Part shown: one piece after another, positions 2,362-57,233 of the stretch | How the letters are laid out: the number at the start of each line of letters is the position of its first letter | Position numbering within the stretch: the stretch's first letter is position 1 | Made by a program: the position numbers and the translations under genes | The notes under the pieces: model-generated | Database searches by the model: none | What the model saw: the letters and a program-made list of their open reading frames with translations, nothing else | What the model was told of the DNA's origin: nothing | Assembly (NCBI GenBank): GCA_050011875.1 | Contig: JBEKIG010000013.1 | Coordinates: 4,928-68,927, forward strand | Reading direction: 5' to 3' | DNA length: 64,000 nt | Source of the DNA: Nitrososphaeria archaeon | GTDB lineage: Archaea > Thermoproteota > Nitrososphaeria > JACIWG01

Positions 2362-3466
2362 TAATAGACCTTGTTGTGTCTTGAGAACTACGATTGATCA
2401 TTTGTGCCCTGCGATCGGTTTTGGCAAGTATGGTTCTTCCATGTAGGCGATGTCTTTTTCGGAGAGACCGACTTCTATCGATTCGACAGCCTCTTGCACG
2501 TGCTCGGGCTTCGAAGTCCCTATGATAGGCGCTGTGGCCCCCTTCTTGAACAGCCATGCCAACGCGATCTGAACCGGCTTCACCCCATTGTCCTGCGCTA
2601 CTTCAGTAACCCTTCTGACGATTTCAGAGTTTTCAGGAGGTTCGACGTAAGGTTTATAGACTAAACCGGCAAGTTTAGAGTCCGGTTGAAGCCTCGTCAT
2701 ATCGTTCCTACCGATCTCAATTCTTCCACCTTTCATATAGCGTCCAGACAGCAGGCCGACTGCGGTGGGATTGTAAGGTATTATTCCTATCTTCTGGTCT
2801 TTACATAGAGGCACCATCTCTCTTTCCTCCTCCCTGTACAGCAGGTTCCACTTGTCCTGCATGCTTGTAAATTTCTCATAACCCTTGATTTCACTCGCAT
2901 ACAAAGCCTTAGAAAACTGCCAAGCCCACATACTAGAACCCCCAATATAACGGACTAAACCACCTCTAACAAGATCGTTTAATGTTGAAAGTGTTTCATC
3001 AATAGATGTTTCATAGTCCCACCTATGCGTCTGGTAGAGGTCAATATAATCCGTCTTGAGCCTCCTCAGAGAACCCTTCACCTGTCCCATTATGTGCTTA
3101 CGTGAGAGACCCCTCTGGTTCGGCTTCTCCCCCATCGGGTTGAAGACCTTTGTAGCAATTATTACATCCTCTCGCACGTCTTTGAGAAGTTCTCCCGTGA
3201 TCTCCTCAGACCTGCCTAAGGAGTAGACGTTCGCCGTGTCGAAGAAGTTGACCCCCAAGTCAAGCGCTTTGCTTACAACCTTCCTCGCATCATCTAATTC
3301 GACCATCCATGGCTCAGCGTTTCCAAAATGCCAGCATCCAATCGCAATCGGGGACACTTTCAATCCTGACCAGCCTAATCTAACATACTTCATATCGTTC
3401 AACAAGCATGTCAACTTTGTTCTTCCTTAAAAGAATTAGCTGAACTTCTATGGTACAACTGAGAGT
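2362..3466. repeat. copy 1 of a ~1.1-kb direct segmental duplication (AKR gene plus both flanks)
   Basis: Nucleotide similarity to 16369-17476 extends about 37 nt past the stop (taatagaccttg.t.tgtcttgagaact.cgattgatca). It also extends about 70 nt upstream of the start (gttctt.cttaaaag.a.t.gctgaactt...caactgaga). Confidence 0.85.
2398..3393 (-). CDS. aldo/keto reductase family oxidoreductase (paralog 1)
   Basis: 331 aa from the ATG at 3393 (MKYVRLGWSGLKVSPIAIG...). AKR hallmarks are FFDTANVY, DYIDLYQTHRWD and GIIPYNP. The ORF-track start at 3414 adds 7 residues that are not conserved in the paralog. Confidence 0.9.
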   Translation of the reverse strand: MKYVRLGWSGLKVSPIAIGCWHFGNAEPWMVELDDARKVVSKALDLGVNFFDTANVYSLGRSEEITGELLKDVREDVIIATKVFNPMGEKPNQRGLSRKHIMGQVKGSLRRLKTDYIDLYQTHRWDYETSIDETLSTLNDLVRGGLVRYIGGSSMWAWQFSKALYASEIKGYEKFTSMQDKWNLLYREEEREMVPLCKDQKIGIIPYNPTAVGLLSGRYMKGGRIEIGRNDMTRLQPDSKLAGLVYKPYVEPPENSEIVRRVTEVAQDNGVKPVQIALAWLFKKGATAPIIGTSKPEHVQEAVESIEVGLSEKDIAYMEEPYLPKPIAGHK

Positions 3467-8643: not shown

Positions 8644-9417
8644 TTATTGTGTACCAACTACGTTGACCGTTGTCTTTATCGTAAGGTTTTCGCCTGTAAC
8701 TCCGATTATTAGTGTGTACGTTCCAGGTGTTATGTTTACGTTAAAATGTGTGTCTGTTGCTGCTTGCCAGTAGAGAGTACCTATCTGTCCCTGAAGACCA
8801 GGCTGAGGCGTTTGGGTCGAGTGCCCAAGCTGATACGCTAACCCCTTGACCTGCTGGTTTTGGGAATTAAAAACATCCAACTCCACGTACGAGGCGTTGA
8901 CCTCCTGTGCCCCTGTCAGATTGAAGCGTACCCCAAGGTAACCGTTAGGATTCACAGACGTACCTGAAAGTGTAACCTCCAGTTTCAGCCCTGAGGTTTC
9001 GTTGGTCAGCGTTGGACCGAGGAACTCGGCGGGTGGCGAAGTTGTAGTGGTCGTCGAAGTAGTCGTGGATGAAGGGGTTGGAGTTGAGCCGTAAACATAG
9101 GGCAGAACCATTACGGTTGCTATCACGAGAACCGCCAGTACTATTACGACCGTGAGAATTATTGCATTTTTTGAGTTTTTCTTGTTACCAATAAGAACAA
9201 ACTCGTAAGCGGACAGGGAGCCGAAGGTTAGAGTAAGCACTACAAAAGTAGCCAACAACACGTTTAGATTTATAGGGGACATAATGCTTGGGTTCTTTAT
9301 ACTTGGGTTCTTTAGGTGTTGAATTAGAGAGAATTCAGAGAATGATATGGAGTCGAATATTATCGTCAACACTGCAAAGGTCACCAACAACATGTTTCTT
9401 GTCTTCGAAGATGGCAT
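8644..9417 (-). CDS. membrane-anchored surface protein with Thr-rich linker and C-terminal beta-rich domain
   Basis: 257 aa with three N-terminal hydrophobic segments, a TPTPSSTTTSTTTTTSPP linker and a beta-strand-like C-terminal half. The start lies 4 nt after the stop of regulator 9422-9844, suggesting co-transcription. It contains a 15-nt tandem duplication (9287-9316, IKNPSIKNPS). Confidence 0.6.
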   Translation of the reverse strand: MPSSKTRNMLLVTFAVLTIIFDSISFSEFSLIQHLKNPSIKNPSIMSPINLNVLLATFVVLTLTFGSLSAYEFVLIGNKKNSKNAIILTVVIVLAVLVIATVMVLPYVYGSTPTPSSTTTSTTTTTSPPAEFLGPTLTNETSGLKLEVTLSGTSVNPNGYLGVRFNLTGAQEVNASYVELDVFNSQNQQVKGLAYQLGHSTQTPQPGLQGQIGTLYWQAATDTHFNVNITPGTYTLIIGVTGENLTIKTTVNVVGTQ

Positions 9418-9421
9418 TATC

Positions 9422-9844
9422 TTACATCTTCTTCAGCGCTCTAATCACTTCATACAGTGATGTTGCAACCCCTACCAAGCACACCGCTAAAGCGAAACCA
9501 TATGTGGACGTTATCTGAGGCGGCCTCAGATAGGTTAACAGAATCAGAAATGCTACAGCGAAGAACGCCATGTACGCCGTCTGGAATGGTATAAGCGTCC
9601 TCCTCACCCTGACTATGTTCTCAAAAACAACCTTATCCACCACATAGCCTTTGTCCTGTTCTCTGATGAGCCCAGCCTCGAGAAGCTTGTTGACGTGATA
9701 TGATGCAACGGACGAGGAGCCGAACCCAAGGCCCTCCTGCACGCCACTGATACCTACAGGCTTTCCCTCCTTGAATATGAAACGGTAAACTCTGAGAGTA
9801 GTACCCCTCAAAACCTTTGCTTCATCCTCTTCCTTCGCAGCCAA
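9422..9844 (-). CDS. membrane-tethered winged-helix transcription regulator (wHTH plus 2 C-terminal TM helices), paralog 1
   Basis: 140 aa. The N-terminal ~75 aa look like a wHTH (YRFIFKEGKPVGISGVQEGLGFGSSSVASYHVNKLLEAGLIRE). The C-terminal part has two hydrophobic helices. Apparent TTG start. By hand count, 98 of 140 residues are identical to 51082-51504. Confidence 0.75.
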   Translation of the reverse strand: MAAKEEDEAKVLRGTTLRVYRFIFKEGKPVGISGVQEGLGFGSSSVASYHVNKLLEAGLIREQDKGYVVDKVVFENIVRVRRTLIPFQTAYMAFFAVAFLILLTYLRPPQITSTYGFALAVCLVGVATSLYEVIRALKKM

Positions 9845-9891
9845 CAGTCTTCAACCTTATGATAAACGATAACATATTAAGTCTTACCAAA

Positions 9892-9926
9892 TTCTAAAAT
9901 TAGAAGAACGCTTTCTAAAATTAGAA
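9892..9926. promoter_or_regulatory. two exact copies of the inverted-repeat box TTCTAAAATTAGAA (putative operator of the wHTH-TM regulator)
   Basis: The boxes are at 9892-9905 and 9913-9926, 21 nt apart start to start. Half-sites TTCTAA and TTAGAA are reverse complements separated by 2 nt. The same box occurs at 51553-51566. Confidence 0.55.
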
Positions 9927-9958
9927 AACTGCGCTTTCCCGTCTTTCTATTAATAGCG

Positions 9959-9965
9959 CTATATC
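9959..9965 (+). promoter_or_regulatory. TATA-like element CTATATC upstream of the MSEYK gene
   Basis: It is centred about 34 nt upstream of the ATG at 9996. An identical heptamer sits at the same distance before the paralog (51599-51605). Confidence 0.35.
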
Positions 9966-9995: not shown

Positions 9996-10829
9996 ATGTC
10001 GGAATATAAAAGGCAGATAGTTGTAGGAGTTTTCGTAGCTGCTGTAATAGCGTTGGTTCTAGCAGGAGGAGCAATCTACCTCCTTCCACTGCAACCCATG
10101 CGGACGACATCCACAACACTTATCACTCCTACAACTACAGCTACAGGCACAGCTACAACAACTGCTACAGGAACTTACAGTAGTACATCTACGTTTGGTG
10201 GTTCACCTACTACTACACCGTCAACTTCGTCTGGTACGACGATTACTCTCGGTCCCCCTTATACATCTGTTACAACTATTACTACTGCAGGTACGACTAC
10301 ACCTATTACAATTACGTTCACTCCTACGATTACATCTATTACATCTACAGCTGGAACAGCTACTACAAGTGGTTCTACGACTATAACGTCCGGACCTACT
10401 GTAACTGTTACTGTGACAGAAATATTAGGTACTGTGGTATCGCCTGGAACTACTGAAACAGTTACTGTGACAGAACAAGTTGGCACTGCGACTGAGACCG
10501 TGACAACAACTGAGACACAAGGTTTAACGACAACTGTAACATCAACCACAACAGTAACAAGTGTAGGAGGGCTTGAAATAACAAACGCCTATGCTAATAG
10601 CACGACTCAGGTGGTTGTAAGCGTCATGAACACAGGGAGCACAGACCAGACCATTACAGGCATACTCGTAAACGGAAAATCTCTTTCAAGCGTGAACGGT
10701 GGCACTTCAAACCCAAGCCTACCTATCAAGGTGGCAGCGAATGCATCGCTAACCATCAACCTAACCTTCAGCTCTCCACTATCATCGAACACAATATATT
10801 TCGTAACAATTCAAACCAGCACAAGTTGA
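9996..10829 (+). CDS. signal-anchored Thr-rich surface protein (MSEYK family), paralog 1
   Basis: MSEYKRQIVVGVFVAAVIALVLAGGAIYLLPLQP anchor, about 150 aa of T/S/G/P linker, and a conserved C-terminal domain ...MNTGSTDQTITGILVNGKSLSSVNGGTSNPSLPI...LTFSSPL. Confidence 0.7.
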   Translation: MSEYKRQIVVGVFVAAVIALVLAGGAIYLLPLQPMRTTSTTLITPTTTATGTATTTATGTYSSTSTFGGSPTTTPSTSSGTTITLGPPYTSVTTITTAGTTTPITITFTPTITSITSTAGTATTSGSTTITSGPTVTVTVTEILGTVVSPGTTETVTVTEQVGTATETVTTTETQGLTTTVTSTTTVTSVGGLEITNAYANSTTQVVVSVMNTGSTDQTITGILVNGKSLSSVNGGTSNPSLPIKVAANASLTINLTFSSPLSSNTIYFVTIQTSTS

Positions 10830-11758
10830 TCCAAAGGAGTAATGATACGATCAAACAATCGGTCGATAAAAGCTCCTATAAGATAGCTTTTGTCGCCCTT
10901 ATAGTTACAGCTGCAGTTGTTGGAAGTACTATCTACTCTAACCCAACATTATTCAAAAGTTCAACAATCACTTCAACAATGACTACAACGACAACGAAAA
11001 CTCAGTATATAACTACCGATAAGAATGTGTATAATGTTGGTGATACTTGTCATTGGACGGCAACAGGTCTGATTTCAGGCACAACCTATTCGATTTACTG
11101 GTCTGAATATTTTTCAAACTCCCAAAGTTACTACTCTCTTAGCACTTGGAATGCTACCTCATCTTCGATGATAGGTACTTTTACTGTTACAAACGACATG
11201 CAAGGAGGCGGAGATCTAATATTAAACGAAGGTTATGGAGCTTCTCCAGACGCAAACATCGTTATTTGGATTAACTCGCTATCATCAACAACTTCTATAT
11301 CTACCATTCCGATAACAACTACAACAGGAACAACTACTTCTAATATTACTTCCGGAACCAATACTACGACAACCGTAATTTCAGTGCTGAATGTGTCCAG
11401 CTTAATCTCATCCGATGAATCGTTAAACGCTGTGATGGAGTTCCAGGGATGGAACGCTACCCAAATGGCATCCTATGGAGTTTATACACAGCTTAGATAC
11501 CTGAAAGAAGAAAATGGATGGCTCAACATATACACGGTCGACCCTAATACGACTAAAATATTGAGTTTGGAAGCGAGCGAATCTCTTCAGATTCCTGACC
11601 CCACAGTAAAACTGCCGGGGTACTTTTGGTTCATAGACATTAACGCAGATGTAAAAACAGTTGCACCAGGCAACTTTCCAGAGGCAGGTACATATTACGA
11701 CTTCTGGGTAGACGCCGTTAACGCCACAGTAGTGTACTCAGAAGGGCCGGTCCCGTAG
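10826..11758 (+). CDS. signal-anchored secreted two-domain protein, translationally coupled to 9996-10829
   Basis: The TTG start overlaps the upstream stop by 4 nt. One N-terminal TM helix is followed by two globular regions separated by a Thr-rich linker. No family recognised. Confidence 0.6.
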   Translation: MIQRSNDTIKQSVDKSSYKIAFVALIVTAAVVGSTIYSNPTLFKSSTITSTMTTTTTKTQYITTDKNVYNVGDTCHWTATGLISGTTYSIYWSEYFSNSQSYYSLSTWNATSSSMIGTFTVTNDMQGGGDLILNEGYGASPDANIVIWINSLSSTTSISTIPITTTTGTTTSNITSGTNTTTTVISVLNVSSLISSDESLNAVMEFQGWNATQMASYGVYTQLRYLKEENGWLNIYTVDPNTTKILSLEASESLQIPDPTVKLPGYFWFIDINADVKTVAPGNFPEAGTYYDFWVDAVNATVVYSEGPVP

Positions 11759-12912: not shown

Positions 12913-13413
12913 TCAAGGATTGCCAACATTCCGCCGTGATGACATCCTCTTGGCGATCCACCTAATGAGTAGCATGGACGCTCCCATGAACAGCGAAATA
13001 AAAGATCCCTGCCCTATGGAGTAGCCAAGAGACTGGCCAAGGTAAAGGTATGAAACCACTCCGAAAGAAATGAAGGCAGATATCATCCAGATCAGGATGA
13101 ACACGTTGGAGATGGAGTTGGCGACCCCAGTCTTCCTCTGACCCGCTTGGTCTCTAGCAGCTGCACTCGTCTCTATGATTCGGACCGCCACCAAGGCTTC
13201 CTTCCCTTCATCGGAAAGCCGATAGTTCCCTTCAGGATCGAGGACAATCAACCCTTCCAGTTTCTTCAGGTGGTAGTCCAGGTTGCCGCTGCTTGAGATT
13301 CCCAGCTTATTCTTCAGCTTTCCAAAGCTCAGGGGAGTGGACTCAAGAACTTCCAGAACCCTGATTCGCGTAGGATGAGCGATCTTCTCAAAGAGCTCGG
13401 CTGAGCTGGACAT
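12913..13413 (-). CDS. ArsR-type wHTH regulator fused to C-terminal transmembrane helices
   Basis: IAHPTRIRVLEVLESTPLSFGKLKNKLGISSSGNLDYHLKKLEGLIVL is a classic ArsR/SmtB-like HTH. The C-terminal ~60 aa form 2-3 hydrophobic helices. Confidence 0.75.
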   Translation of the reverse strand: MSSSAELFEKIAHPTRIRVLEVLESTPLSFGKLKNKLGISSSGNLDYHLKKLEGLIVLDPEGNYRLSDEGKEALVAVRIIETSAAARDQAGQRKTGVANSISNVFILIWMISAFISFGVVSYLYLGQSLGYSIGQGSFISLFMGASMLLIRWIAKRMSSRRNVGNP

Positions 13414-37037: not shown

Positions 37038-37997
37038 ATGAAACTGGCAGACCTGTCTACCGAGTTTACAATAATCATAATGATCGTCGGGTGCGTTGCC
37101 GTTGTTACTTATATTGAACCTTCATTTTTTAGCTATGCCACATTTGTTGTTGTCGCATTTACATCTGCAGAGCTAGGTTTTATTGCGTTAGGCATATCAC
37201 CCCTAATAGCAACAGGGGAAATAGACCTCTCTGCAGCAGCGGTTCTCACGCTTACTCTGTGGGTGTACGACGGTTTTGCCACGGGTTTAAGCTTTTCACT
37301 ACCCTATGGCCTGATAGTACCTCTATTAGTCGCAATATCCATTGGCTTTATTCAAGGATACATTTGCTTAAAGATGCGTATACCAGCCTTTATTGTAACC
37401 TTTGTGGGAATGATAGTATGGGAAGGGATAGAGGTAGCTATCACGGGTGGATACAATTCAGGTTATACGGGTATTACCACTGGCTTGTTTTCAAAAGTCC
37501 TCAGTGGTTATATAGGAAAGGTTCCTCTTGAATTCGTATGGTTCGTCGTCTTGACGGCTATCTTTGCGGTCATAATTACCAGGACCCCATTCGGTAGTCA
37601 TGTGCTTGCTGTCGGAGGCAATGAGACAGTTGCCAGAAACCTAGGAGTTCGAGTCGATAGAACCAAGGTACTCTGCTTCATGATCTCTGCGTTGATGGCA
37701 GGTGTGACAGCTATCTTTTTCTTTAACCGCCAATTTTATGTATCGTCAACTGTGTATACCCAGGCTCCATTGTTCGCGATATGTGCTAGCGTAGTGGGTG
37801 GAAATAGGGCAGGGCATGCCAATATGGTAGGAGCAGCTTTAGCCTCGATACTCGTTATAATTATTCAAGAAGGAATGGTTATGGCTGGTGTACCTTCAAC
37901 TTTGTACATGGCTGCGGTCGGTATAGTCCTTGTTATATTCGCGACCATTCACGTCAAGGCGCGAAAGTTCTCTTGGGCGATGGTGAGGAGAAAATGA
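37038..37997 (+). CDS. sugar ABC transporter permease (CUT2/RbsC-AraH type), subunit 1
   Basis: 319 aa with about 9-10 TM helices. It carries the family motif ...FGSHVLAVGGNETVARNLGVRVDRTKVLCF... Confidence 0.85.
   Translation: MKLADLSTEFTIIIMIVGCVAVVTYIEPSFFSYATFVVVAFTSAELGFIALGISPLIATGEIDLSAAAVLTLTLWVYDGFATGLSFSLPYGLIVPLLVAISIGFIQGYICLKMRIPAFIVTFVGMIVWEGIEVAITGGYNSGYTGITTGLFSKVLSGYIGKVPLEFVWFVVLTAIFAVIITRTPFGSHVLAVGGNETVARNLGVRVDRTKVLCFMISALMAGVTAIFFFNRQFYVSSTVYTQAPLFAICASVVGGNRAGHANMVGAALASILVIIIQEGMVMAGVPSTLYMAAVGIVLVIFATIHVKARKFSWAMVRRK
37599..37690. repeat. ~90-nt tract nearly identical to 38573-38664 inside the tandem paralogous permease gene
   Basis: gtgcttgctgtcggaggcaat..gacagttgccagaaacctaggagttcgagtcgatagaaccaag.tactctgcttcat.atct. 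There are about 5 mismatches, including a 43-nt perfect run, while the rest of the two genes is far more diverged. Confidence 0.75.
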
Positions 37998-38986
37998 AAA
38001 TCCGTGATTTTCTGTTATCACCTGAAGTCAGAATAACCATAGCCGCGGTGGCGATATTTATAGCGTTTGGATTGCTTAACTCAAAATTTTTCACACAATT
38101 TGTATGGAGGGGAATTTTAACGGATGGAGCAGACCTCAGTTTCCTAATACTTGGTGAAAGTCTTGTTATAACATCTGGTGAGATAGATCTTTCAGTGGCC
38201 TCAACGTGGGCTTTAACTGCATACATTTTCCAATTCTTCACAAATCCTACTGTAATGGGGGGTTTGGCTTTAGATCCAAATCTTGTTGCGGTAGCGGTTT
38301 TGTGTCTAGGTATCGGAATAGGTGCTGCCAACGGCGTTGTCTCAGTTAAGAGTGGTGTCCCTTCCTTCCTTGTAACCTTGGCTTCGTTGTGGATAGTAAG
38401 GAGCGTAGTATTTATCATAAGTCCGGGTACCTATAGTTATTTGCATGTTACTAACACAGTGTTTGATAAAACCTTGAAAGGTTACGTAGGAGTGTTCCCT
38501 TATGAATTCATATGGTTCATCGTCCTCACAGCGATCTTTTTATTCATACTTACTAGGACTAAATTTGGTGGTCACGTGCTTGCTGTCGGAGGCAATCGGA
38601 CAGTTGCCAGAAACCTAGGAGTTCGAGTCGATAGAACCAAGATACTCTGCTTCATAATCTGTGGTTTCATGGCAGCTCTAGGGGGAATAGCGTTTATAAC
38701 AACGTACGGGGTGATGCAGCCTGTCTCTGGTATGGAAGCGGAGTTCGGAGCTGGTTTGGAGTTCGAAGCAATAGCTGTATGCATGATGAGCGGTATGTCG
38801 CCTTGGGGTGGACGAACAAGCATTATTGCGGTGTTCATCGCAACCGTTGCATATTCATCGTTCAAGGATGGGCTGGTACTTTCTGGGCTGCCAGGCTATT
38901 GGTATCTCCCATGTGTGGGAATCATGGTTTTCGTCCTCGTTGGCTTGCATTTGATTGGAAGGAGAAGAATAATTAAGCAACAGTGA
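37994..38986 (+). CDS. sugar ABC transporter permease (CUT2 type), subunit 2
   Basis: The ATG at 37994 overlaps the upstream stop (ATGA). About 330 aa, with the same family motif ...FGGHVLAVGGNRTVARNLGVRVDRTKILCF... Confidence 0.85.
   Translation: MKIRDFLLSPEVRITIAAVAIFIAFGLLNSKFFTQFVWRGILTDGADLSFLILGESLVITSGEIDLSVASTWALTAYIFQFFTNPTVMGGLALDPNLVAVAVLCLGIGIGAANGVVSVKSGVPSFLVTLASLWIVRSVVFIISPGTYSYLHVTNTVFDKTLKGYVGVFPYEFIWFIVLTAIFLFILTRTKFGGHVLAVGGNRTVARNLGVRVDRTKILCFIICGFMAALGGIAFITTYGVMQPVSGMEAEFGAGLEFEAIAVCMMSGMSPWGGRTSIIAVFIATVAYSSFKDGLVLSGLPGYWYLPCVGIMVFVLVGLHLIGRRRIIKQQ
38573..38664. repeat. partner of the 37599-37690 near-identical tract
   Basis: See 37599-37690. Confidence 0.75.
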
Positions 38987-50452: not shown

Positions 50453-50929
50453 ATGGATAAGATAAAGATCCTTTTCCTATGCACCCATAACTCAGCGCGA
50501 TCCCAAATGGCTGAAGGATTTCTTAGACACTTCTATGGAGAAAGGTATGAAGCATTCAGCGCAGGCTCAAAACCGACACGTGTCCATCCTCTTGCCATAA
50601 AGGTGATGTCTGAAGTGGGGATAGACATTTCGAAACATACGTCTAAGAGCATCGAAGAGTTCCGGAACAAGGACATTGACGTAGTTGTAACCGTGTGCCG
50701 TAGCAGTGCAAAGGAGGTCTGTCCGTTTTGCTCTTCACCGATACTTGGAAGTAGACCGGAGATAGTAGCCTCGACCGTGCCAAGCGCTCGGAAGTATATA
50801 GAACACGGTTTCAGCGACCCTTCTGAAGTTTATGGAAGTGATGAGGAAAGGACTGAAGCCTTCAGACGCGTGAGGGATGAAATAGCTAGTTGGATTAAAG
50901 ATACTTTTGCGGACCTCGGCGATCTTTAA
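50453..50929 (+). CDS. arsC: arsenate reductase, LMW-PTPase (thioredoxin-coupled) family
   Basis: ILFLCTHNSARSQMAEG (CX5R P-loop), ...AFSAGSKP... and ...VVVTVC... 158 aa. Confidence 0.85.
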   Translation: MDKIKILFLCTHNSARSQMAEGFLRHFYGERYEAFSAGSKPTRVHPLAIKVMSEVGIDISKHTSKSIEEFRNKDIDVVVTVCRSSAKEVCPFCSSPILGSRPEIVASTVPSARKYIEHGFSDPSEVYGSDEERTEAFRRVRDEIASWIKDTFADLGDL

Positions 50930-51081: not shown

Positions 51082-51504
51082 CTATACTTTCCTTAACGCT
51101 CTTGTAACTTCGTATAATGAGGTCGCAAGTCCGACAAAGATCACCGTTAAAGAGAAGGCATAGGTGGACGTTATTTCAGGTGGTCTCAGGTAGGTCAGCA
51201 GGATCAGGAATGCCAGTAAGAAGAATATGGCGTACGTGGTCTGTAAGGGTATAAGCGTCCTTCTCACCCTGATCACATTTTCGAACATCACCCTGTCTAC
51301 GACGTAGCCTTCATCCTGTTGCCTGATGAGGCCCGCGTCAAGGAGCTTGCTGATATGGTATGATGCGAGTGAGGATGTGCTAAATCCGAGGCCCCGTTGC
51401 ACGTCATGGACGCCAATGGGCTTCCCCTCCTTGAACATAAAGCGATAGACCTTGAGAGTAGTGCCCTTCAATACGTCTGCTTCAGCCTTTTCCGCTGTAC
51501 TCAA
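51082..51504 (-). CDS. membrane-tethered winged-helix transcription regulator (wHTH plus 2 C-terminal TM helices), paralog 2
   Basis: 140 aa, collinear with 9422-9844 (98 of 140 identical by hand count). Apparent TTG start, as in paralog 1. Confidence 0.75.
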   Translation of the reverse strand: MSTAEKAEADVLKGTTLKVYRFMFKEGKPIGVHDVQRGLGFSTSSLASYHISKLLDAGLIRQQDEGYVVDRVMFENVIRVRRTLIPLQTTYAIFFLLAFLILLTYLRPPEITSTYAFSLTVIFVGLATSLYEVTRALRKV

Positions 51505-51552
51505 AGTCTTTCCAACATTGATGGACCAGCATTCAATTTAAACCTTACTCCA

Positions 51553-51598
51553 TTCTAAAATTAGAACACAGTCTTCCATCATCAATCTAAAATTAGTA
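51553..51598. promoter_or_regulatory. inverted-repeat boxes TTCTAAAATTAGAA (51553-51566) and ATCTAAAATTAGTA (51585-51598)
   Basis: The first box is identical to the two boxes at 9892-9926. It lies 48 nt from the regulator start codon (47 nt in the paralogous locus). The second box abuts the CTATATC TATA-like element. Confidence 0.55.
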
Positions 51599-51605
51599 CT
51601 ATATC
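51599..51605 (+). promoter_or_regulatory. TATA-like element CTATATC upstream of the MSEYK gene (paralog 2)
   Basis: It is centred about 35 nt upstream of the ATG at 51637. The same heptamer and spacing occur at 9959-9965. Confidence 0.35.
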
Positions 51606-51636
51606 GTTGCTCACCTTTACCTTAAGCCGTGGAAAA

Positions 51637-52314
51637 ATGTCAGAATATAAGAAGCAGATCGCTGCAGGAGCTTTGACGGCTGTCGTGATAGCGTTAATTT
51701 TGGCAGGTGGAGCAAGCTATCTTTTCCCACTTCAGCCCACGCAGACGACCTCCACAATAATTAACCATTCCTCTGCAGCTGCAGCCACAGCGTCTACCAC
51801 TAAGGCTACAAGCGCTGCTATTACATCTATACCTCAGACAACGTCGTCAGGAACTACCTTCACGACGTCTACGACATATTTAGGCACTACGACAACGATA
51901 TATTTACCTCCGACCATGACTCTACCCACTAATAATGGCACTACGATAATTACAAACGGCACTATGACATATACAATAACTCCTCCTATCACCACGGTGA
52001 CTACGACAATTGGACCGATTGTAACTGTAACCGTGACCCAAAACCTCATAAAAGATATTGAGATAACATACGTGAACTTCAACGCCAGCATCCCAACTCA
52101 TGTGTTCGTAGGCGTCAAGAACGCCGGCACCACGGACCAGACCGTCACAGAAGTACTCGTAAACGGAATACCGTTATCAAGCGTGAACGGAGGTACATCA
52201 AATCCAAGCCTGCCCATTACAATAGCAGCAGGTAGATCACAGGAGATCACCCTAACCTTCAGCTCGCCACTGCCATCAGGAACATACTTCATAACAATTC
52301 TCCCCGGTGATTGA
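51637..52314 (+). CDS. signal-anchored Thr-rich surface protein (MSEYK family), paralog 2
   Basis: MSEYKKQIAAGALTAVVIALILAGGASYLFPLQP..., a Thr-rich linker, and a conserved C-terminal domain ...KNAGTTDQTVTEVLVNGIPLSSVNGGTSNPSLPI...LTFSSPL. Confidence 0.7.
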   Translation: MSEYKKQIAAGALTAVVIALILAGGASYLFPLQPTQTTSTIINHSSAAAATASTTKATSAAITSIPQTTSSGTTFTTSTTYLGTTTTIYLPPTMTLPTNNGTTIITNGTMTYTITPPITTVTTTIGPIVTVTVTQNLIKDIEITYVNFNASIPTHVFVGVKNAGTTDQTVTEVLVNGIPLSSVNGGTSNPSLPITIAAGRSQEITLTFSSPLPSGTYFITILPGD

Positions 52315-53242
52315 TACGCATCAGAATCTATTGGAAGGAGCCGTGCCGAAGGCTCAGGTTGTTTTGTTATTGGCCATACTTTTGGTTGGAGCAGTCGGCG
52401 CCTACTATGTTGTACAGGAAGAACTGCCAAAGAATAGTAACCCTTTGACTACTACTTCGACCTCGGGCACATCAACGTCCGCTCCGGTAGACGCAGGCCC
52501 GCTAACCGTAGTTTCAGTTAGTCTTCTTCGGCCCTATAACCCGGGTGGACCGACAATTGAAGTCATCCTGCAGAACAAGGCAAACAACCCAGTGGTTAGC
52601 CTTCAAACGGTATTGTCATTATCGGGACGCAACTACACGTACGTTTTCGACGACGTTTCTTCAAGCAATCCGCTGTTGACCAATCAGGACGCATCTCAGA
52701 CAGCCACTCTGATCGGTCCTGCCGGATTTGAAACAAATCAAACGTACCCGATGGAGATACGAGGCACTCTGCAAAATGGATCCTTGTTCGATTACGTAAC
52801 TCCTGTGACAATAGCCCAATACTCCAATCAGCTCGTGGCGTCCGGAGGAAACGGCAATCTCCAACTTACCATGGTCCTCGGAAAAACCGTGTACAGTTTA
52901 GGCGAACCTGTTAACCTAACTTTGACCATCACCAACATCAGCAATCAGACAATAAACTTTATGCACTCAGGATTGGATTTTGATTTTCGAGTTTACAACG
53001 GCACAAACAACGTCGTGTACCAGTGGTCAAATTTCAGAGGCATCGCTCAATTCATAATGATCGTGCCGCTTCACGCCGGAGAGAGCAGGTCGGCCAACTT
53101 CACTTGGCTGCAGACATGCAATTTCAACGCCTCAGTTGAAGGAGACCCAGTCTCACCAGGGACCTACAACATAATTGGCCAAACTGGCTCAGTGTACGGT
53201 TTACAGACGACGCCGATACAACTCACAATCGTCAACCCTTAG
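52307..53242 (+). CDS. signal-anchored secreted protein with C-terminal BsuPI-like (proteinase-inhibitor) beta-sandwich
   Basis: The GTG start overlaps the upstream stop by 8 nt. C-terminus: VNLTLTITNISNQTINFMHSGLDFDFRVYNGTNNVVYQWSNFRGIAQFIMIVPLHAGESRSANFTW. It follows the BsuPI pattern (sG..yDF.V.d..g..vw.wS......q.....l..GE.....w). Confidence 0.55.
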   Translation: MIDTHQNLLEGAVPKAQVVLLLAILLVGAVGAYYVVQEELPKNSNPLTTTSTSGTSTSAPVDAGPLTVVSVSLLRPYNPGGPTIEVILQNKANNPVVSLQTVLSLSGRNYTYVFDDVSSSNPLLTNQDASQTATLIGPAGFETNQTYPMEIRGTLQNGSLFDYVTPVTIAQYSNQLVASGGNGNLQLTMVLGKTVYSLGEPVNLTLTITNISNQTINFMHSGLDFDFRVYNGTNNVVYQWSNFRGIAQFIMIVPLHAGESRSANFTWLQTCNFNASVEGDPVSPGTYNIIGQTGSVYGLQTTPIQLTIVNP

Positions 53243-53756: not shown

Positions 53757-56700
53757 CTATGATGTCTTTGGATGGTCGATTCGGACCCGGTCATGCTTAC
53801 CTGCTTTCCGCCTCGGCAATACAACCCTCCAAAGGATTACGATTACCGCTAAGATAACCGCTAAGATAATAACTATCAAAATGGACGTGTAAACCCAGTT
53901 TATCGAGAAGCTTGCCTGCACGCTCTCAGCAGAGTTCACCACAACACTAACTTCAGTTTCGCTTGAAGACGTTGCACCAGACCAGCCGTCAAACTTGAAC
54001 AGGAAAAACGCAGGACTAGCTGCAAGCTGAACAGTCGAACCCAAAGGCACAAACAGCGTCCTATTACTCGCACCACCCACCTTACCAGCAAGCGAGGCAG
54101 AGCTGTAGGAAACACTTCCGAAACTCGAAGAAACAACAGAGAGACCAGGATAGAACGCTGCGCTTTCAACGATAGGATCCTTGACCGTAACAGTGAACGG
54201 ATTACTCACCCCCCCATACGAGCCGACCCCTGAACCGTTCCATAACTCGAACTGCCAACCACCATTTGAAGCAGCAGAAAGCTGAACCTGCTCACTGGAA
54301 TTAAACCAATCCGTCAAAGGAGACACGAAACCACCCTGCTGGCTGTTGGAAAGGACCTTAACATAATACTGGTGGTAGTAGAAAGGAGACAAGACGACGG
54401 CCGAGCTCACCGAACCTGTGGTTGCCTGCGCAAGGACCGACCATCTCTCGTTCGAAGAAGCATAAGCAACGCTTGCAAAACTAAACGTACTGCCCGAGTC
54501 TGCCCAAGCTGTCCCCTGCGTGACACCAATCAGTGAAGTCGACGGCGATCCAAGCGAAGAGAAGTTCAACTCCAAAGAACCTGGGTTCCCCCCGCCGGAT
54601 ACGCTGTAGCTATAAACAATGGTGTACTGGTGATAGTAGACAAGGGTCATTGAAACAGCTGCGTTCACACTGCCGGAGCTAGAGCTATTGGTGTACCAAC
54701 GCTCAGATGAGCCAGACCCCTGAAGAGGATTCGGCAAGCTGAATGAAGTGCCTGCGTCAAGCCAATTGGAACTTAGGGTCGCGTTTATCGGAAAAGCCGC
54801 TGACACTCCGAAAGCTGTCCCCGACAACAACGGAGAAGTAGGATTCCCGCCACCATTGATGACATATCCTACTGAGATGTCGAATTGGTGGTAGTATTGG
54901 AAGGTCGCGGTGGTAGGTCCCGAGACAGCCCCTGCGTCGGTCTGAGACGTAATCCACCTTTCAGATGAATTAGAGCTGGAGAGAGGGTTAGTGACCGACC
55001 AAGATGAACCATAATCAAACCAGTAGGCTGTAGGTATGCTCGTTATGGTAGGCGAAAACGCCACACCATTCTGCAAACCTGACAACAGCGGAACGGCCGG
55101 CGAACCACCTCCAGACACAGAATACGCCAGAGTCCAAGCTACCTGAAAGTAATACGGAACAACTACCACAGACCCAGAAACAGTTCCCGACGTTTCGTTA
55201 GTGGCCATCCACCTTGTGTTTGAATTCGACCCTGATAGCAAGCCTGTGAACGAATAGGATGAACTCGCGTCTGTCCAGTCAGTGAAATTCGCCACCCCTT
55301 GGGATTGTGATCCGAACTTGGTGTAGGAGACGGTCGGAGCCGTGTAGCCCGACTGATTAGAGTTCATAATGTTGAAGCCAAACAGAACGTAGTACTGGTC
55401 ATAGTATGTGAAAAGAACGGACTGGGCGGCGGAAACGGTTCCTGAGGTCACATCCTGAGTGTACCATCTCTGCACGCTACTCGACCTCTGTAAGGGGTTT
55501 GAAACAGACCAGAGCTGTCCGACGTCGGACCAATAGGCCGTGGGTGAGCCGGAAAGGCTAACAGCAGCCGCCGAGCCGAACTGGGTTAGGGCAAGGCTGG
55601 GCGCAGTAGGACCTCTTCCCCCCACTGTCGTATAGCCGGAAGTCAACCTGTACTGGTGGTAGTATGTCGCAGAAAACAACGTACTAGAGTTAACCATGCC
55701 AGTCGGAGACTTAGTGGCCCACCGTTCGTTTACGTACGATCCGGGCAACGGATTCTGAAAGGAATACAATGAGCCGGCGTCCACGAAGGCCAAGAAACCG
55801 GGCGTAATGGATACAGATGACCCGAATTCGCTGACATTCATGCTTGGCTGTGAGTAACCGCTGCCACCGTTTGCGACAGCATAGAGGAAGGATACGCGAA
55901 ACTGGTGGAAATATACGAAGTTCAACGTTGTACCGTTCGTGGGAGCAGTGCCGCTAGTTTTATTTTGTGTGTCCCAGATCTCTATCGAAGTTGAGCCCTG
56001 TAACAGGCCGTTCACGCTCCACGGAGATCCGCTGTCCATGTAGTAGGTGGTAGAATTAGTGGAAAGCTGGATGATGTGCTGAATCCCGCCGGAATAGTAG
56101 ATGAAGAATGGTGGAGAATATCCACTTCCACCACCTTGAACTGAATAATTTACGTTAACTGTGGCAGGACTATATCCTGTGATAAACAGATACGAGTCAG
56201 AAGCCTCCGTGGCGTTATGGGATGATAGGTACTGCAATGTTTTCGGAACCGTGTAGACGACAGGACCACTCGTGGAAGCCACGAACAACGTTTGGCCAGT
56301 GCTCGGCACCCATTCCTCCATCCACATCCAGGCGGAGGATTTTGCGAAGTCGTTTTCCCAATAGGTGACATTTGCCTCTTCTCCGTAATAGGCGGAGGAG
56401 TGCCACCATTCCGTCATAAGCCCGGTGAAGAAACCGTTACTGTTTTCTGGCGATGAAGCTAAGCCCACGAAAACGGAAGAGCCCTCCTGGTTGAACATCT
56501 TTACGGCCCCTGCCCCCGTGTTATAATCATATGCTTGCATCACGACGTTGCCGCCAGAAAAGAAAAGGTTAAGGAGGACTGTATCCCCCTGTTTCACGGT
56601 CCCTGAGAAGGACGATAGTCCGACTCCGCTTGCTGGGTAGATTGAATTACCACTTGGGTCAAAGACTTCGTAATTCATGCTAAAGCCCGATGCGTAGCCG

Positions 56701-57233
56701 CCAACCAGATTAGGCCAATGCCAAGAAAGGCCCACCTGATACCAATACCCCGTATCAGTAAGGCCATCCAGATCGTAGCCCGGTCCGTATCCGTTGCTGT
56801 CCGACTGAGCCACAGCGGTGACGTTGTAGGCCATACTTGTGAAGTTCTGGGTGAAAGTTAACCCCAGCTGCTCGTCGTAAATCGCGGATGGTTGATTCTC
56901 AACCGGGTAATCCTGGTTGTTTACAGTAGACAGCTCCAAACCAGCCAATCGATGGCCTTGCGATTGACCCGCCGGAGAATCAGAGCTGAAAGATTCTGGT
57001 ACGTTTTGACGACACAACGAGCAAGAGTAAGATCCATCCGAACCCAGTCCAGTTGAAATGTTAACACCACCTGAAGAGGGATTAATGACGGAGGAAGTTG
57101 CTCCAAAAACGCCAACATGAGGCGCTGTCCAACCAAGAGCGACAAGCATTACAATTAACAGAATGCAGAAACCTAATCCCTTGGTAATCCTTCGAACTGG
57201 GCAACCATGAATCTTAATCAAAGCCAGTTTCAA
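53757..57233 (-). CDS. 1158-aa C-terminally anchored, repeat-rich surface protein with an N-terminal concanavalin-like (thermopsin/eqolisin-like?) domain
   Basis: N-terminal signal or anchor, a ~190-aa domain (aa ~125-310), seven tandem ~84-86-aa modules, two InlB-B-repeat-like modules (...GGWQFELWNGSG..., ...FKFDGWSGATS...), then a C-terminal TM helix and basic tail. Visibly G+C-rich. Start codon uncertain (TTG in the track). Confidence 0.85.
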   Translation of the reverse strand: MKLALIKIHGCPVRRITKGLGFCILLIVMLVALGWTAPHVGVFGATSSVINPSSGGVNISTGLGSDGSYSCSLCRQNVPESFSSDSPAGQSQGHRLAGLELSTVNNQDYPVENQPSAIYDEQLGLTFTQNFTSMAYNVTAVAQSDSNGYGPGYDLDGLTDTGYWYQVGLSWHWPNLVGGYASGFSMNYEVFDPSGNSIYPASGVGLSSFSGTVKQGDTVLLNLFFSGGNVVMQAYDYNTGAGAVKMFNQEGSSVFVGLASSPENSNGFFTGLMTEWWHSSAYYGEEANVTYWENDFAKSSAWMWMEEWVPSTGQTLFVASTSGPVVYTVPKTLQYLSSHNATEASDSYLFITGYSPATVNVNYSVQGGGSGYSPPFFIYYSGGIQHIIQLSTNSTTYYMDSGSPWSVNGLLQGSTSIEIWDTQNKTSGTAPTNGTTLNFVYFHQFRVSFLYAVANGGSGYSQPSMNVSEFGSSVSITPGFLAFVDAGSLYSFQNPLPGSYVNERWATKSPTGMVNSSTLFSATYYHQYRLTSGYTTVGGRGPTAPSLALTQFGSAAAVSLSGSPTAYWSDVGQLWSVSNPLQRSSSVQRWYTQDVTSGTVSAAQSVLFTYYDQYYVLFGFNIMNSNQSGYTAPTVSYTKFGSQSQGVANFTDWTDASSSYSFTGLLSGSNSNTRWMATNETSGTVSGSVVVVPYYFQVAWTLAYSVSGGGSPAVPLLSGLQNGVAFSPTITSIPTAYWFDYGSSWSVTNPLSSSNSSERWITSQTDAGAVSGPTTATFQYYHQFDISVGYVINGGGNPTSPLLSGTAFGVSAAFPINATLSSNWLDAGTSFSLPNPLQGSGSSERWYTNSSSSGSVNAAVSMTLVYYHQYTIVYSYSVSGGGNPGSLELNFSSLGSPSTSLIGVTQGTAWADSGSTFSFASVAYASSNERWSVLAQATTGSVSSAVVLSPFYYHQYYVKVLSNSQQGGFVSPLTDWFNSSEQVQLSAASNGGWQFELWNGSGVGSYGGVSNPFTVTVKDPIVESAAFYPGLSVVSSSFGSVSYSSASLAGKVGGASNRTLFVPLGSTVQLAASPAFFLFKFDGWSGATSSSETEVSVVVNSAESVQASFSINWVYTSILIVIILAVILAVIVILWRVVLPRRKAGKHDRVRIDHPKTS
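54381..56168 (-). repeat. seven tandem ~84-86-aa protein modules inside 53757-57233
   Basis: The modules begin near aa 359, 440, 524, 610, 694, 780 and 866. Each has YY(H/F/D)Q(Y/F)...GG(G/S)...P...W.D.GS..S...PL......(E/Q/T)RW......G.V. Confidence 0.8.

Follow-up and report, generated by a model that had tools for sequence, protein, structure and literature searches.

To our knowledge, ArnR is the only archaeal membrane-bound regulator family that has been studied experimentally, and how the uncultured archaea of soil and peat control transcription has hardly been explored. The subject of this work is a pair of paralogous loci, modules A and B, in 64,000 nucleotides (nt) of contig JBEKIG010000013.1 from a Nitrososphaeria archaeon (assembly GCA_050011875.1, positions 4,928 to 68,927), a stretch referred to throughout as the window. 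In each module, the gene for a small predicted transmembrane regulator and a surface-protein operon, named MSEYK after the first residues of its product, diverge from an intergenic region that holds copies of a short inverted repeat, TYCTA-N4/5-TAGRA, here called the box. Sequence conservation indicates that the boxes are very probably operators of the adjacent regulator, and about 80% of related loci in uncultured archaea of soil and peat preserve the arrangement of regulator, surface protein and box.

ArnR and ArnR1 of Sulfolobus acidocaldarius are membrane-bound one-component activators of the archaellin promoter, and ArnR binding needs both of its boxes (PMC6396743). Like these archaeal proteins, the regulators of the window carry at the N-terminus a helix-turn-helix (HTH) predicted to lie in the cytoplasm and two predicted C-terminal transmembrane helices (PMC6396743). 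The genes targeted by ArnR likewise encode membrane-anchored surface structures, although the MSEYK protein is not an established pilin or archaellin. Both systems use at least two short inverted repeats of the 5-N5-5 type, TCGAC-N5-GTCGA for ArnR and TYCTA-N4/5-TAGRA here. However, between its HTH and membrane helices ArnR has a HAMP-like domain and a sensor domain, whereas the regulator, with 140 amino acids (aa), consists only of a winged HTH (wHTH) and a membrane hairpin; as it is without HAMP and sensor domains, it is not considered a member of the ArnR family. The boxes of ArnR occupy positions -43 to -84, upstream of the B recognition element (BRE) that is read by transcription factor B (TFB), whereas the invariant box here abuts the TATA-like element. 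The relationship shown between ArnR and the regulator sequence goes no further than a generic HTH, and a scan of names, in which no ArnR sequence was compared, found no match named ArnR among the 120 homologues listed.

More widely, the regulator shares with the transmembrane transcription regulators ToxR, TcpP and CadC the union of a DNA-binding domain and transmembrane segments in one polypeptide. Such proteins average about four per archaeal genome, and 17% of all of them have two membrane segments (PMC10269533). ToxR and CadC are activators with an OmpR-type winged helix, one membrane helix, a periplasmic sensor and direct repeats as sites, in contrast to the ArsR-like wHTH, the hairpin with about six residues outside and the palindromic sites found here. 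The ArsR/SmtB family offers a further comparison, as the winged helix is of its type (Pfam HTH_20, weak matches to the ArsR structures 6j0e and 6j05), and its members, as is also predicted here, read a promoter-overlapping inverted repeat as dimers and autoregulate a divergent operon or their own, usually by repression. Unlike ArsR/SmtB proteins, the regulator has no metal-binding cysteines (alpha3 CXC or alpha5 site), scores below the curated thresholds, is membrane-anchored and is paired with a surface-protein gene instead of a resistance gene. Finally, the Ptr2 upstream activating sequence and the EarA sites resemble the boxes in being several short sites beside an archaeal BRE/TATA that act through TATA-binding protein (TBP) and TFB access (PMC5512572, PMC4158304), a mode of action that is predicted here. 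Those sites, however, lie upstream of the BRE and are activating, and their proteins are soluble and of the Lrp or EarA type. Of four motif strings, representing the box of the window and the most frequent orthologous box of GC-rich genomes, each in both orientations, none occurred in the library of papers searched. Collectively, the regulator–operator system is uncharacterised, is closest to ArnR and belongs to the known class of transmembrane one-component regulators.

The regulators, their predicted promoters and the boxes of the two modules are as follows.

Module A
9422-9844, reverse strand: regulator A, 140 aa, TTG start, a paralogue of regulator B with 70% identity
9873-9888, reverse strand: predicted core promoter of regulator A, GGTAAGA-C-TTAATATG, 36 nt before the TTG
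9892-9905, no strand: box A1, perfect TTCTAAAATTAGAA, with the offset that B1 has from its regulator start
9913-9926, no strand: box A2, perfect TTCTAAAATTAGAA, 21 base pairs (bp) from A1, the 21-bp unit
9945-9958, no strand: box A3, degenerate TTCTATTAATAGCG (TTCTA-TTAA-TAGCG), abutting CTATATC, centre 32 bp from A2
9959-9965, forward strand: CTATATC, predicted TATA box of MSEYK operon A, beginning 37 nt before the ATG

Module B
51082-51504, reverse strand: regulator B, 140 aa, TTG start, N-terminal wHTH and C-terminal two-helix membrane hairpin as predicted from the open reading frame (ORF), Pfam, an AlphaFold2 (AF2) model and hydropathy
51534-51548, reverse strand: predicted core promoter of regulator B, GTAAGG (BRE-like)-T-TTAAATTG (TATA), 37 nt before the TTG
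51553-51566, no strand: box B1, perfect TTCTA-AAAT-TAGAA, ending 11 nt upstream of the regulator TATA and just upstream of its BRE
51585-51598, no strand: box B2, degenerate ATCTAAAATTAGTA (ATCTA-AAAT-TAGTA, two mismatches), abutting the target CTATATC in the BRE position, centre 32 bp from the centre of B1
51599-51605, forward strand: CTATATC, predicted TATA box of MSEYK operon B, beginning 38 nt before the ATG

The perfect box TTCTAAAATTAGAA is a 14-base inverted repeat, TTCTA-N4-TAGAA, and the sole 14-mer with at least three copies in the window, every copy lying in the two divergent intergenic regions. The initial annotation, made from the sequence of the window, had described the box at 51553-51566 as identical to the module A boxes, and exact copies are indeed present at 9892-9905, 9913-9926 and 51553-51566; the degenerate second box that it placed at 51585-51598 also abuts CTATATC as described, the heptamer occupying 51599-51605. 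The 11-mer core TCTAAAATTAG occurs exactly four times in 64 kb, each time at a box site. Similarly, a pattern scan returned three perfect TYCTA-N4/5-TAGRA sites in the window, all of them these boxes, while 26 other matches to 9 of 10 positions correspond to chance density and have no promoter context, and give no sign of further regulon members in the window. The annotation had proposed to calculate the probability of a shared 14-mer, and about 9e-5 are expected between two random intergenic regions of these sizes. Between the modules, 26 of 27 box columns are identical, against 49% of the other aligned intergenic columns and 47% of the four-fold degenerate sites of the two regulator genes, which agrees with the earlier view that conservation is motif-specific.

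The geometry of the boxes is shared as well. Both modules run from the regulator start over 47-48 nt to a perfect box, then 32 bp from centre to centre to a degenerate box, a TATA-like heptamer and, after about 30 nt, the ATG, and module A has one additional 21-bp unit with a perfect box relative to module B. The distances of 48 nt (B, 51504 to 51553) and 47 nt (A, 9844 to 9892) between regulator start and box are those given by the initial annotation, and its figure of about 35 nt between the heptamer and the MSEYK ATG is acceptable, as the heptamer begins 38 nt (B) and 37 nt (A) before the ATG. Its claim of a fixed geometry relative to both genes is supported, but on the MSEYK side the geometry is kept through the degenerate TATA-abutting box, not through the perfect boxes. 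Box A3, a third module A box that the annotation lacked, abuts CTATATC in A just as B2 does in B. As for the flanks that were said to agree (cttac..ca), CTTAC does stand 4 nt before the box in both modules, whereas the positions of "ca" differ; CTTAC is accounted for by the regulator promoter, of which it is the BRE-like part seen on the opposite strand. Module B has in addition, between target TATA and ATG, an ACCT(A/T)AAG element (51619-51626) that is kept in the clade of this module. In two orthologous loci of the set described below, L001 and L032, the element becomes a palindrome resembling the box but with a spacer of 6 nt (ACCTAAAGTCATAGAA), which lies across the predicted transcription start, and it could be an additional, weaker operator.

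The promoters were assigned with a local pattern built from 25 other window genes, in which an A-rich stretch resembling a BRE precedes TTAWATAA at 25-43 nt from the start codon. Both predicted regulator promoters fit this pattern (GGTAAGA-C-TTAATATG and AGTAAGG-T-TTAAATTG), and GCTTAAAT is kept at the place of the regulator TATA in close orthologues. On both sides of the boxes, TATA-like 8-mers stand 36-38 nt before the start codon, as they do for other window genes. At the target promoter, the right arm of the box occupies the place of the BRE. A scan of the window for bacterial sigma-70 promoters and terminators has no meaning for an archaeon.

The conservation of the box was followed in 31 genomic and 80 metagenomic loci (labelled L001 and so on) from Nitrososphaerota, including Candidatus Gagatemarchaeum, and Bathyarchaeia. 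A match was defined as at least 9 of 10 positions of TYCTA-N4/5-TAGRA, with dinucleotide shuffles as the control; the DNA runs that contain the window sequence itself are peat and soil metagenomes. By this measure, 80 of 100 loci with a usable 200-nt upstream region have a box, as do 68 of 88 unique upstream regions (shuffles: mean 4.4, maximum 11), and 48 of these 88 have a perfect one (mean 0.18, maximum 2). Absence of the box from the orthologous loci of relatives had been named in the initial annotation as grounds for abandoning the idea, and these counts show the contrary. The density upstream is about 20 times that of the rest of the loci, with 2.85 per kb versus 0.16 elsewhere for boxes with a spacer of 4 and 3.45 per kb versus 0.14 for a spacer of 5, and there was no enrichment of spacers 3 and 6 in the upstream regions of the fetched loci.

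The most widespread element in the orthologues is a box that abuts the TATA-like element of the divergent target gene. For example, GC-rich relatives, with regulators only 50-58% identical to those of the window, have TCCTAAAAC(A/G)TAGGA-CTATATCG. The TATA-like element next to the box has the form YTAWAYN, with 0 nt between the two. From the end of the box to the target start codon there are 30-32 nt in the GC-rich clade and 36-41 nt in the window clade. The shorter distance fits a leaderless mRNA if the heptamer is a TATA box centred 26-27 bp before the start (PMC4158304, PMC5512572), and the longer one would therefore imply a leader of roughly 6-10 nt. The spacer shifts from AAAT to AAACG or AAGCG in GC-rich genomes while the palindromic arms stay; with constant arms and a changing spacer, the box is not conserved for AT-richness, and a role as a TATA box is argued against.

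The invariant element is thus the TATA-abutting box, which is degenerate in the window, and the perfect window boxes are variable regulator-side copies, numbering 0 to 4 in the orthologues. L002 and L035 have no such copy, module B, L001 and L032 have one each, module A and L038 have two, and L037 has four. A box of the B1 type stands at -62..-49 from the regulator start in L001, L032 and L036-L038, and L037 and L038 have TTCTATTAATAGCA at the position of box A3. In L037, positions 2320-2450, upstream of the regulator at 2501, hold four exact 21-bp tandem units TTCTAAAATTAGAAAAACACT plus the TATA-abutting box, five palindromes in all. As close relatives of L037 have 0, 1 or 2 units, the number of operator copies changes through tandem duplication. 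Centre-to-centre spacings are 21-23 bp (26 cases), 31-32 bp (13 cases) or 27 bp (one case), the first two equal to two or three helical turns. In the clade typified by L008, a 14-nt box abuts the regulator-side TATA-like CTATTAG, mirroring the 15-nt box at the target TATA. L002 and L035 have a different palindrome, AAGAG-N5-CTCTT, between the regulator TATA and the single box, in the place of the regulator-side box.

The regulator itself is, according to its model, a minimal transmembrane one-component transcription factor with an ArsR-like winged helix facing the cytoplasm. Its TTG start is supported by homologues that begin at the same alignment column. The AF2 model of regulator B (31 homologues) has a mean predicted local distance difference test score of 83.5, with a three-helix bundle and beta wing at about 90, a long helix at 71-104 and a second helix at 113-139. 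Both helices coincide with hydropathy peaks at 84-102 and 116-134, for which the Kyte-Doolittle 19-aa values are 2.13 and 1.52 (1.99 and 1.91 in regulator A), and two hydrophobic helices (about 84-104 and 113-135) are kept in the 31 homologues. Residues 71-83 connect the wing straight to the first membrane helix, with no other Pfam domain, and the predicted hairpin loop of about six residues (RPPEIT) is conserved and lies on the far side of the membrane. Regulator B has no cysteines, and regulator A has one, within the second membrane helix. A predicted DNA-binding domain and at least one predicted transmembrane region are thus found in one polypeptide, as in transmembrane transcription regulators generally. 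That the protein acts on DNA while in the membrane is suggested by the conserved operators adjoining its gene.

Family assignments are weak. Pfam HTH_20 gives a marginal 27.7 bits for regulator A and a sub-threshold 20.9 bits for regulator B (cut-off 27), and NCBIfam HTH_metalloreg stays at 19.8 bits where 55 is the cut-off; neither regulator nor target proteins had a useful NCBIfam match. The structural neighbours found with Foldseek in the PDB are the DNA-binding domains of IclR, ArsR, CggR and PadR, all with weak E-values, and the Foldseek and profile sequence searches with the regulator returned only a generic winged helix. The recognition helix SSPS[VL]AxYHxxKL is kept across the family, which has more than 160 members in the protein database, nearly all unnamed and from Nitrososphaeria-type metagenome-assembled genomes and metagenomes. 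In the window, tblastn found the two modules and no further paralogues. In L051, L060 and L082, the best tblastn regulator match is far from the one originally reported (4191 versus 2501 in L060); these loci may hold a second regulator copy, and if so, the module would multiply locally besides dispersing, as in the window. A second, unrelated candidate transmembrane regulator of 166 aa, with an N-terminal ArsR-like HTH and C-terminal hydrophobic helices, is encoded at 12913-13413 on the reverse strand.

The box and the regulator are connected through residue 48 of the recognition helix (regulator B numbering), which covaries with the arms: glutamate occurs with TCCTA/TAGGA, and histidine or serine with TTCTA/TAGAA. 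The association of residue and arm (22/31 versus 1/56 sites, Fisher p = 1.8e-12) is not corrected for phylogeny and is supportive only. Given this covariation and the strict proximity of gene and box, the adjacent regulator is by far the likeliest binder. A regulator dimer would read both arms of TTCTA-N4/5-TAGAA, and several dimers could occupy one face of the DNA, as suggested by box centres 21-23 or 31-32 bp apart. The TATA-abutting box would take up the site where TFB reads the BRE of the MSEYK promoter, such that bound regulator would block TFB and repress the surface-protein operon. A signal from the membrane or envelope may then alter the hairpin so that the DNA is released. The same array would feed back on the regulator's own promoter; in the window, the boxes stop 11 nt short of the TATA of this promoter, just upstream of GTAAGG, which is BRE-like. 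Further, the paralogous modules probably cross-regulate each other, since their boxes are identical.

Archaeal repressors bind in the promoter region, hindering TBP or TFB, or downstream, blocking RNA polymerase, and activators bind upstream of the BRE (PMC5512572, PMC4158304). Given this rule, repression is favoured because the invariant box leaves 0 nt to the TATA-like element and hence no room for a BRE beside it. Even so, the chances that the MSEYK operon is repressed appear evenly balanced. The same protein and sites could have the opposite sign, forming an upstream activating array through which the regulator recruits TBP or TFB to an intrinsically weak MSEYK promoter, and likewise to the promoter of its own gene, in the manner of ArnR, Ptr2, EarA and TFB-RF1, an alternative that is plausible but the less probable. 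A number of observations weigh against repression in this respect. ToxR and CadC, like the activators just named, switch genes on. The target promoters depart from the local consensus, with CTATATC in place of TTAWATAA and no A-rich BRE, and are weak core promoters. Off-consensus promoters are typical of activator-dependent archaeal genes, whose activator sites lie upstream of the BRE (PMC5512572); indeed, the regulator promoter of the window clade has its box in the classical activator position just upstream of the BRE. The strict zero spacing of box and TATA would be equally suited to stereospecific contact with TBP or TFB, and the membrane-bound ArnR and ArnR1, whose sites are two 15-bp inverted repeats of the 5-N5-5 type, act as activators (PMC6396743). 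A phased palindrome array, of up to five in L037, and the expression of both genes in situ at an orthologous locus are likewise in line with activation. Two further points tell against the proposed regulator–operator pairing as such: the covariation of helix and arms is confounded by phylogeny, and about 20% of the orthologous regions have no match at 9 of 10 or more positions, some of which (L006, L007) keep a degenerate version of the TATA-abutting box. On balance, the explanation taken whole, in which the boxes are operators of the adjacent membrane regulator with repression by TFB blocking as the likeliest action, can be held with moderate confidence.

It is conceivable that the identical boxes of modules A and B serve a common external factor encoded elsewhere, the adjacent wHTH membrane protein being a mere member of its regulon. 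The box, however, co-occurs with the regulator gene in about 80% of the 88 diverged loci, always upstream of it, is not enriched elsewhere in the loci or the window, and has arms that covary with a residue of the recognition helix, all of which makes an external factor very unlikely. Equally, the window boxes are AT-rich, contain TAAAAT, include a tandemly duplicated 21-bp unit and place a right arm that partly resembles a purine-rich BRE in the BRE position, as might be expected of an AT-rich core promoter (TATA/BRE) or of the remnant of a duplicated or mobile repeat. Such an origin is scarcely credible, as GC-rich orthologues keep the arms around an AAACG or AAGCG centre, both arms are kept as an inverted repeat with only two spacers allowed, separate TATA-like elements stand at the expected distance from both start codons, and the position is kept across distant taxa with unrelated flanks. 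This positional constancy despite unrelated flanks also led to the rejection of a mobile-element terminal repeat. An RNA hairpin was rejected because each arm is a mere 5 nt long and both predicted starts are downstream of the box.

A variant of the operator explanation concerns the signal. The regulator is without a sensor domain and could detect the insertion or abundance of its own target in the membrane, in a product-feedback circuit that we regard as improbable. The target's tail and anchor would contact the juxtamembrane helix or hairpin of the regulator and switch its hold on the TATA-abutting operator. As the 21-bp operator unit expands and contracts (0-4 copies among close relatives), it would tune the gain of such a circuit.

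The genes of the two MSEYK operons are listed here.

9996-10829, forward strand: target A, MSEYK protein with the architecture of target B, C-terminal domain 63% identical
10826-11758, forward strand: second gene of operon A, membrane-anchored, 4-nt overlap with the target stop
51637-52314, forward strand: target B, MSEYK protein with an N-terminal anchor, a disordered Ser/Thr-rich linker of about 95 aa and a C-terminal beta-sandwich
52307-53242, forward strand: second gene of operon B, membrane-anchored, with a BsuPI-like domain, 8-nt overlap with the target stop

The model of the target has a helix at 3-29 and a confident beta-sandwich at 130-225, with about 95 disordered residues between them. 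Its best Foldseek matches, FlaF/FlaG, the Aap pilin and a Pyrobaculum pilus, are weak (E about 2e-3). The N-terminus reads MSEYK(K/R)Q-I(A/V), and all 17 homologues with a complete N-terminus have glutamine ahead of the hydrophobic stretch; the glycine or alanine at -1 of a class III signal peptide was found neither in the target nor in any of these 17. As the glycine or alanine before the prepilin cleavage site is missing and the fold matches are weak, the target is not called a pilin; it is described as a membrane-anchored and probably glycosylated surface protein. Conservation is far stronger in its cytoplasmic tail of 8 residues and its anchor (MSEYKRQI...ASYLFP) than in the remaining protein. 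No homology was detected between the second genes of operons A and B.

Evidence of expression comes from an orthologous locus, as no RNA runs containing either window module were found. At L013, a locus of Ca. Gagatemarchaeum, the target gene is covered by contigs of eight peat metatranscriptomes and, in four of the eight, the regulator gene is covered as well, which shows that both are expressed in situ. None of the RNA contigs covers the box region of L013, which is covered by one run of unknown kind, probably DNA. Breaks in the RNA contigs, at about 2761-2771 and 3008-3031, fall where the conserved N-terminal parts of the two genes are encoded and are probably an assembly effect of conserved paralogous sequence. 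As they fall in conserved coding sequence, these contig ends are not transcription starts; the RNA pattern is compatible with boxes between two starts, without mapping the starts.

The modules differ in their surroundings. A gene for a 257-aa membrane and Thr-rich surface protein (8644-9417, reverse strand) starts 4 nt past the stop of regulator A and has no counterpart in module B; it is probably co-transcribed with regulator A and would share its autoregulation. Convergent to operon B is an ORF for a 1158-aa Ser/Thr/Gly-rich repetitive protein (53757-57233, reverse strand) with an N-terminal signal-like region and a C-terminal anchor, and the neighbourhood of this operon is rich in surface proteins. 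Convergent to regulator B is a low-molecular-weight phosphatase/ArsC-like gene (50453-50929, forward strand; CX5R loop CTHNSARS, Pfam LMWPc 8e-20). This neighbour prompted consideration of an As(III)-sensing ArsR, which was rejected because regulator B has no cysteines and the ArsC-like gene is convergent and present in module B only. Elsewhere in the window, a 35-nt stretch aacctaggagTTCGAGTCGATAGAAccaag (printed as a 15-mer with its flanks; 37648-37662 and 38622-38636) is identical in the overlapping ORFs 37038-37997 and 37973-38986 and points to a tandem gene duplication unrelated to the boxes.

The result is a well-supported regulatory prediction, not a new mechanism, and it overturns no concept. 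It does offer a clean, testable system made of a 140-aa protein and a sharply defined operator, TYCTA-N4/5-TAGRA, at a fixed position relative to the TATA box. Natural variants are on offer in the spacer of 4 or 5 nt, in the 0-4 extra boxes and in the linked changes of arm and recognition helix. If the product-feedback circuit were true, it would be self-contained and widespread in non-ammonia-oxidising Nitrososphaerota and Bathyarchaeia. The system could be used to address how a membrane-tethered factor acts on archaeal TBP and TFB, and which surface proteins these organisms regulate.

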